A stretch of 64,000 nt of DNA from Escherichia coli (lineage in GTDB: Bacteria; Pseudomonadota; Gammaproteobacteria; Enterobacterales; Enterobacteriaceae): assembly GCF_024223415.1 (NCBI RefSeq), contig NZ_CP100500.1. One strand, written 5' to 3'. The notes beneath the pieces are model-generated. The model made no database searches. It was not told the origin of the DNA and saw only the letters and a list, made by a program, of their open reading frames with translations. A program made the translations under genes and the position numbers. This document shows positions 21,227 to 21,640 of the stretch, one piece after another. Position 1 is the first letter of the stretch, and every line of letters starts with the position of its first letter.

Positions 21227-21340
21227 TGTCTGTAAATCACGACAATGGGTGGTTTGCCGTGTCGCTTTTTGGTGACACTTAACTGATTGATTTTAATGTG
21301 ATCTAATAAGTTTTTCTTAAGTTGTCTCTTTTTAGCGACA
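21227..21340 (+). promoter_or_regulatory. Three GlrR (QseF) activator binding sites upstream of glmY
   Basis: Three TGTC-N10-GACA motifs at 21227-21244, 21260-21277 and 21323-21340. Confidence 0.65.
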
Positions 21341-21429
21341 TAGTGGCTGATTTACATTCAAATAGCGGGGAAGCCATAAACCCCTCAAAGCAACGTATAA
21401 TCAGTACGTTACCAAACTATTTTCTTTAT

Positions 21430-21445
21430 TGGCACAGTTACTGCA
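21430..21445 (+). promoter_or_regulatory. Sigma54 (-24/-12) promoter of glmY
   Basis: TGGCAC-N5-CTGCA, about 12 nt upstream of the inferred GlmY 5' end. Confidence 0.65.
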
Positions 21446-21456
21446 TAATAGTAACC

Positions 21457-21640
21457 AGTGGCTCATTCACCGACTTATGTCAGCCCCTTCGGGACGTGCT
21501 ACATAAAATTCGAATGACGCACAACAAGGTGCCTGCCGTCCAACTTCTGATATCAGCGTAGCTATATCAACCATCGGGCGAAACGTCGAGTTAGGCACCG
21601 CCTTATTCCATAACAAAGCCGGGTAATTCCCGGCTTTGTT
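21457..21640 (+). ncRNA. glmY: GlmY small RNA
   Basis: purL-glrK intergenic location; sequence agtggctcattcaccgacttatgtcagcccc... matches remembered GlmY; ends at terminator hairpin aaagccgggtaattcccggcttt. Ends are approximate. Confidence 0.7.

Follow-up and report, generated by a model that had tools for sequence, protein, structure and literature searches.

What lies in the gap between purL and glrK in this E. coli genome? To an automated reader it would look either empty or occupied by a false open reading frame of 79 residues. In the window, by which we mean the whole 64 kb stretch of DNA analysed here, the purL stop codon is at 21136 and glrK starts at 21699, leaving an intergenic gap of 562 bp, which was read directly. 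No feature is entered at window positions 21137-21698 in the PGAP/RefSeq records of the closest E. coli genomes, and the curated K-12 record alone annotates glmY. An earlier note had described this gap as a complete and already known regulatory module for the small RNA GlmY. From sequence comparison, we hold with near certainty that the locus is the E. coli glmY module, essentially the K-12 allele, which would be controlled by GlrR, IHF and sigma-54 together with sigma-70 and would act through the RapZ decoy mechanism; no observation made here speaks against this reading. Our own analysis established the sequence identity, where the motifs lie, which families the parts belong to, how far they are conserved and the synteny; for binding, dependence on sigma factors, processing and the decoy mechanism we draw on published K-12 work.

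The GlmY RNA and its locus

The flanking genes are purL, glrK, qseG, glrR and glnB, in the same order as in K-12 and with glmY on the same strand as purL and glrK, and the adjoining glrK-qseG-glrR genes are as the earlier note had given them. The features that frame the gap are:

21200-21225, plus strand: purL intrinsic terminator, a hairpin (21200-21221) and a T-run abutting activator site 1
21699-23126, plus strand: glrK (qseE), sensor kinase; TTG start, 475 aa; HAMP, HisKA and HATPase_c domains
23291-24004, plus strand: qseG, lipoprotein; 237 aa; NCBIfam NF007997, 352.6 bits (cut-off 234)
23994-25328, plus strand: glrR (qseF), sigma-54-dependent response regulator; 444 aa; NCBIfam NF011695, 982.7 bits (cut-off 763)

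The encoded proteins are nearly or fully identical to those of K-12: GlrK at 474 of 475 residues, with a shared TTG start, QseG at 233/237, GlrR at 444/444, GlnB at 112/112 and PurL at 1291/1295. QseG, GlrR, GlnB and PurL all score above their NCBIfam equivalog cut-offs; for GlrR this means that the genome has a gene for the cognate enhancer-binding protein. The purL terminator, whose 8-bp stem includes 5 G-C pairs and is followed by a T tail, was found by a terminator scan of 21100-21760 and lies 64 nt 3' of the purL stop.

The block from purL to glnB is 99.8% identical to that of several complete E. coli genomes. The intergenic region itself was found in 5,425 of 5,426 complete E. coli genomes, none of which reached 99% identity over the region, and the exact intergenic allele of the window appears to be absent from this set. 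A REP-like palindrome follows the purL stop (21155-21190, junction near 21175/21176). Here the window lacks 13 bp (TCACGCCGCATCC) carried by the closest E. coli genomes, and K-12 lacks 17 bp at the same spot, both being deletions relative to strain SCU-316. This indel is probably an ordinary REP polymorphism.

Within the gap, three features describe the RNA:

21457-21640, plus strand: predicted glmY primary transcript, 184 nt; aligns base for base with K-12 b4441, 183/184 identical
21457-21604, plus strand: predicted processed active form of GlmY, 148 nt, stem-loops 1 and 2; Rfam RF00128
21612-21640, plus strand: glmY terminator hairpin in the predicted fold; 12-bp stem, 5-nt loop, U-rich 3' arm; expected to be removed by 3' processing

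A search with the Rfam covariance models, the check that the earlier note had proposed, matched GlmY_tke1 (RF00128) at 21457-21604 on the plus strand with 147.1 bits against a gathering score of 33 (E = 8e-33); the match covers the full model (1-163) and is not truncated. Alignment to K-12 glmY (b4441, formerly sroF/tke1) agrees: the RNA is 184 nt in both, and the module end given in the earlier note, 21640, coincides with the annotated 3' end. The sole difference is at 21510, where the window has T and K-12 has A; the Rfam structure leaves this position unpaired, and across species T is found more often. By these measures, the intergenic RNA is the E. coli GlmY sRNA.

The predicted fold of the 184-nt RNA consists of two large stem-loops and the terminator hairpin, with a minimum free energy of -64.2 kcal/mol (z = -5.5; none of 200 shuffled sequences was as stable). 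In an alignment of 92 distinct enterobacterial GlmY sequences, almost all of the 28 consensus pairs are standard. Compensatory double changes occur in just 4 of them because most of the RNA is invariant and hence uninformative. In K-12, the 184-nt transcript is processed to a 148-nt form that is active in vivo (PMC4152352), a length equal to that of the Rfam match. Given identity at 183 of 184 positions, processing to about 148 nt, RapZ binding and protection of GlmZ would be expected for the present RNA as well.

GlmY shares Rfam clan CL00011 with GlmZ (Rfam GlmZ_SraJ), a homologous sRNA of similar sequence and structure, with a similar two-stem-loop body and likewise bound by RapZ (PMC4152352). 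Unlike GlmY, GlmZ base-pairs with glmS mRNA, and its gene is at a separate locus outside the window. Could the RNA in the gap be of this base-pairing type, acting directly on glmS mRNA rather than as a decoy? At overlapping positions, the covariance-model scan reports the best family alone for each clan, and for CL00011 this was GlmY at 147 bits. The RNA also occupies glmY's syntenic position between purL and glrK. The glmZ gene of Escherichia has a constitutive sigma-70 promoter only, without GlrR or IHF sites, whereas glmZ in Yersinia and Salmonella has the layout described below, with GlrR sites, IHF sites and a sigma-54 promoter (PMC3045617). A GlmZ-type RNA is thus effectively refuted by the sequence identity to glmY, and we give that reading a negligible probability.

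The terminator that the earlier note had reported is present as the hairpin at 21612-21640 in the predicted fold. Its end is the annotated 3' end of K-12 glmY, and its conservation is moderate. The simple terminator scanner missed it in 21100-21760, where the purL terminator was its only call. The likely reason is that the U-rich tract lies inside the 12-bp stem, and we treat the miss as a limitation of the scanner, not as absence of the terminator.

Were the glmY hairpin leaky, glmY might be co-transcribed with glrK-qseG-glrR, and the sRNA promoter would also drive the genes of its own regulators. All of these genes are on the same strand, with just 58 nt between the terminator and the glrK start, and a glmY-qseE-qseG-qseF operon is reported in Proteus mirabilis (PMC8745638). 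In E. coli K-12, however, the two-component system is stated to be transcribed independently of glmY (PMC3045617). We regard co-transcription here as unlikely; it would in any case add to the interpretation of the locus as a GlmY module, not displace it.

The glmY control region and its conservation

The region upstream of the RNA contains the following predicted elements:

21227-21244, strand not assigned: GlrR (QseF) site ABS1, TGTCTGTAAATCACGACA; exact motif match, centre -221.5
21260-21277, strand not assigned: GlrR site ABS2, TGTCGCTTTTTGGTGACA; exact motif match, centre -188.5
21280-21292, minus strand: putative IHF site between ABS2 and ABS3; exact match to WATCARNNNNTTR, reading AATCAATCAGTTA on the minus strand
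21323-21340, strand not assigned: GlrR site ABS3, TGTCTCTTTTTAGCGACA; exact motif match, centre -125.5
21399-21411, plus strand: putative IHF site between ABS3 and the promoter; exact match to WATCARNNNNTTR, reading AATCAGTACGTTA
21430-21445, plus strand: sigma-54 promoter TGGCAC-N5-CTGCA; GG at -26/-25 and GC at -14/-13 relative to the start at 21457
21444-21449, plus strand: overlapping sigma-70 -10 hexamer CATAAT, read from the sequence and identical to K-12; overlaps the -12 element

The activator motif TGTCN10GACA has exactly three matches in the 64 kb window, all of them in the purL-glrK gap and starting at 21227, 21260 and 21323, in agreement with the three sites of the earlier note. 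About 0.84 matches would be expected by chance window-wide, and the expected number of triples within 114 bp, estimated from that window-wide rate, is about 1e-6. All three sites lie more than 100 bp upstream of the glmY start. They are spaced by 33 and 63 bp, which is near three and six helical turns, and their role as activator sites matches the K-12 analysis, in which ABS1 is reported to be dispensable, ABS2 essential to the sigma-54 promoter and ABS3 essential (PMC3045617).

The sigma-54 promoter of the earlier note is present and agrees with the K-12 analysis (PMC3045617): TGGCACNNNNNYTGCA has a single match in the window, at 21430-21445, against 0.06 expected, its -24 GG and -12 GC elements are canonically spaced, and it ends 11 nt before the RNA 5' end. 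Dependence on rpoN (sigma-54), glrR and ihf was shown on a K-12 fragment from -238 to +22 (PMC3045617). Over this interval, the window differs from K-12 at 11 positions, all upstream of the start and all in motif spacers or between motifs, so that none falls at a specified motif position. The core promoter together with the 5' part of the RNA (21375-21509) is identical to K-12. Two IHF-like sites flank ABS3 in K-12 glmY, and IHF and one of the two sites are needed for sigma-54 activity (PMC3045617).

In calling the module complete, the earlier note was right insofar as every element it listed is present. The word overstates its inventory, which left out the sigma-70 promoter, the two IHF sites and the 3' processing to 148 nt (PMC3045617, PMC4152352).

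CATAAT is the characterised -10 element of the K-12 glmY sigma-70 promoter, which perfectly overlaps the sigma-54 promoter (PMC3045617). A simple consensus scanner did not call a glmY sigma-70 promoter in 21100-21760. This fits a weak -35 element, and again we treat it as a limitation of the scanner rather than absence of the promoter. The hexamers at the right distance (16-18 nt), TTTCTT or TTCTTT, agree with TTGACA at just 2 or so of the 6 positions, and the K-12 study states that 'putative -35 sequences are detectable' (PMC3045617).

For cross-species comparison, we scanned a species-representative genome collection for the sigma-54 hexamers combined with GCTCATTCA and obtained 120 loci. 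Enterobacterial glmY regions with sufficient flanking sequence account for 94 of them, which gives 95 sequences with the window included. The sigma-54 hexamers and GCTCATTCA were demanded by the search pattern, so their conservation is not independent evidence. In the alignment, the peaks of conservation coincide with the half-sites of ABS1, ABS2 and ABS3, with both IHF cores, with CATAAT and with the RNA body; the spacers and the DNA between sites are near random. With up to one mismatch allowed, three activator sites are found in 75 of the 95 sequences and two in another 18. In 84 of the 95 species, the sigma-54 element and the RNA 5' end keep the same 27-nt spacing.

The individual sites vary in how strictly they are kept. 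The half-sites of ABS1 are 80-90% conserved and its spacer is not; those of ABS2 exceed 90%, and both ABS2 substitutions relative to K-12 fall in the spacer; in ABS3, TGT and GCGACA are conserved. At the IHF site between ABS2 and ABS3, the TTGATT core is more than 90% conserved and an exact match in the same orientation occurs in 68/95 species, and at 21399-21411 the ATCA and TTA positions are 70-90% conserved. CATAAT is present in 56/95 species.

ABS2 also conserves positions beyond TGTC and GACA across species (21264-21273), namely C at 21265 and GG at 21271-21272, a pattern suggesting that the most conserved GlrR site may have a longer half-site, roughly TGTCRC.

The activator-site positions are fixed within each lineage. 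Escherichia and Citrobacter have them at -203/-170/-107 from TGGCAC, as does the window, whereas Yersinia and Photorhabdus have them at -219/-187/-124. In the latter type CATAAT is replaced by CATTAT or CATTAA, in agreement with the grouping in PMC3045617. The glmY promoters of Yersinia, Photorhabdus and Serratia share with E. coli the three GlrR sites, the IHF sites and the sigma-54 promoter (PMC3045617); they differ in the site positions and in the replaced hexamer, and so have no overlapping sigma-70 -10.

A T-run at 21420-21423, 7-10 nt upstream of TGGCAC, is 80-95% conserved in the 95 enterobacterial glmY promoters. We considered it as a sigma-70 -35 element and rejected this assignment, as it is about equally conserved in the 39 species without CATAAT and the 56 with it. 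Because it is conserved with or without the sigma-70 -10, the T-run may be a sigma-54 or IHF-related contact instead. We see a slim chance that the module holds a small unrecognised element of this kind, either this contact or read-through of the glmY terminator that couples the sRNA with glrK-qseG-glrR as in Proteus.

The matches outside the enterobacteria (Sideroxydans and other Gallionellaceae, Zixibacteria, Pirellulaceae, Lentisphaeria) were set aside as chance, since all of them lack GlrR sites as well as the AGTNGCTCATTCA 5' end. A near-identical sigma-54-like promoter, TGGCACGTACACTGCAAGCCAGCGCCTTGCTCATTCAC, recurs in several genomes of Sideroxydans, Sideroxyarcus and Nitrosomonadales (L003, L016, L020, L042, L099, L112 and L116). 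These loci have neither GlrR sites nor a GlmY 5' end and are chance matches to the search pattern.

Open reading frames over the module

Mechanical ORF calling places a frame of 79 aa with a TTG start at 21322-21561, across the control region and into the RNA. Should it encode a real protein, the RNA and the promoter motifs would be secondary or coincidental. The frame exists mechanically, and it is open over at least 200 nt in 51 of the 94 other species. The latter is what one would expect of a strongly conserved RNA sequence without stops in that frame. Several observations argue against a protein: (i) The ORF has no Pfam or NCBIfam match. (ii) The curated K-12 record and a PGAP record both lack a CDS at this position. 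(iii) The boundaries of the frame are unconserved; among the 94 species it stays open for anything between 21 and 405 nt, and the longest ORF over the promoter has a median length of 40.5 aa. (iv) Translation would have to begin within ABS3, at a codon that follows the purL terminator and precedes the only mapped transcription start by 135 nt. (v) Over the RNA, the Rfam alignment departs from the family consensus by indels of 1 and 5 nt, lengths that would be intolerable in a coding frame. A genuine 79-aa protein is therefore extremely improbable, and the ORF is best treated as spurious, as the earlier note had maintained. An antisense ORF of 139 aa (21467-21886, minus strand) likewise has no Pfam or NCBIfam match and is unsupported.

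Recognising glmY and its promoter averts a spurious protein call and sets the glrK start at TTG 21699. Mechanical calling puts the start of the glrK ORF 63 nt too early, at TTG 21636 within the glmY terminator; 21699 is the start equivalent to that of K-12. The value of the analysis lies mainly in this annotation.

The proposed circuit

The resemblance to K-12 extends from the RNA to its surroundings: the two strains share the sigma-54/sigma-70 core promoter base for base, the three GlrR half-site pairs with their positions, the purL-glmY-glrK-qseG-glrR-glnB synteny and an identical GlrR. The differences are the base at 21510, the 11 upstream substitutions off the motif positions and the REP-like indel after purL.

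By analogy with K-12, GlrK would phosphorylate GlrR, both being encoded just downstream together with the lipoprotein QseG (PMC3045617). Phosphorylated GlrR would then bind the TGTC-N10-GACA sites, located between 125 and 220 bp upstream of the start, with ABS2 and ABS3 as the activating pair, and bending of the DNA by IHF would allow GlrR to contact sigma-54 RNA polymerase at TGGCAC-N5-CTGCA (PMC3045617). Transcription is expected to start at 21457 from both promoters, the weak sigma-70 promoter providing basal expression (PMC3045617). The 184-nt transcript would end at the hairpin at 21612-21640 and then be trimmed to the 148-nt form. When glucosamine-6-phosphate is low, GlmY would accumulate, mimic GlmZ and sequester the RNase E adaptor RapZ (PMC4152352). 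GlmZ would then escape RNase E and base-pair with glmS mRNA, activating its translation and so leading to more GlmS synthesis (PMC4152352).

This circuit, in which GlrK/GlrR, sigma-54 and IHF act through GlmY on RapZ, GlmZ and glmS, is already thoroughly characterised, and the locus presents no new biology; the earlier note had rightly called the module not novel, given its previous characterisation in K-12. Elsewhere in the window, two further RNA elements match their Rfam families over the full length: the ryfA RNA at 58206-58510 on the minus strand (RF00126, 326 bits) and the iscR stability element (iscRS) at 50840-50949 on the plus strand (RF01517, 138 bits).
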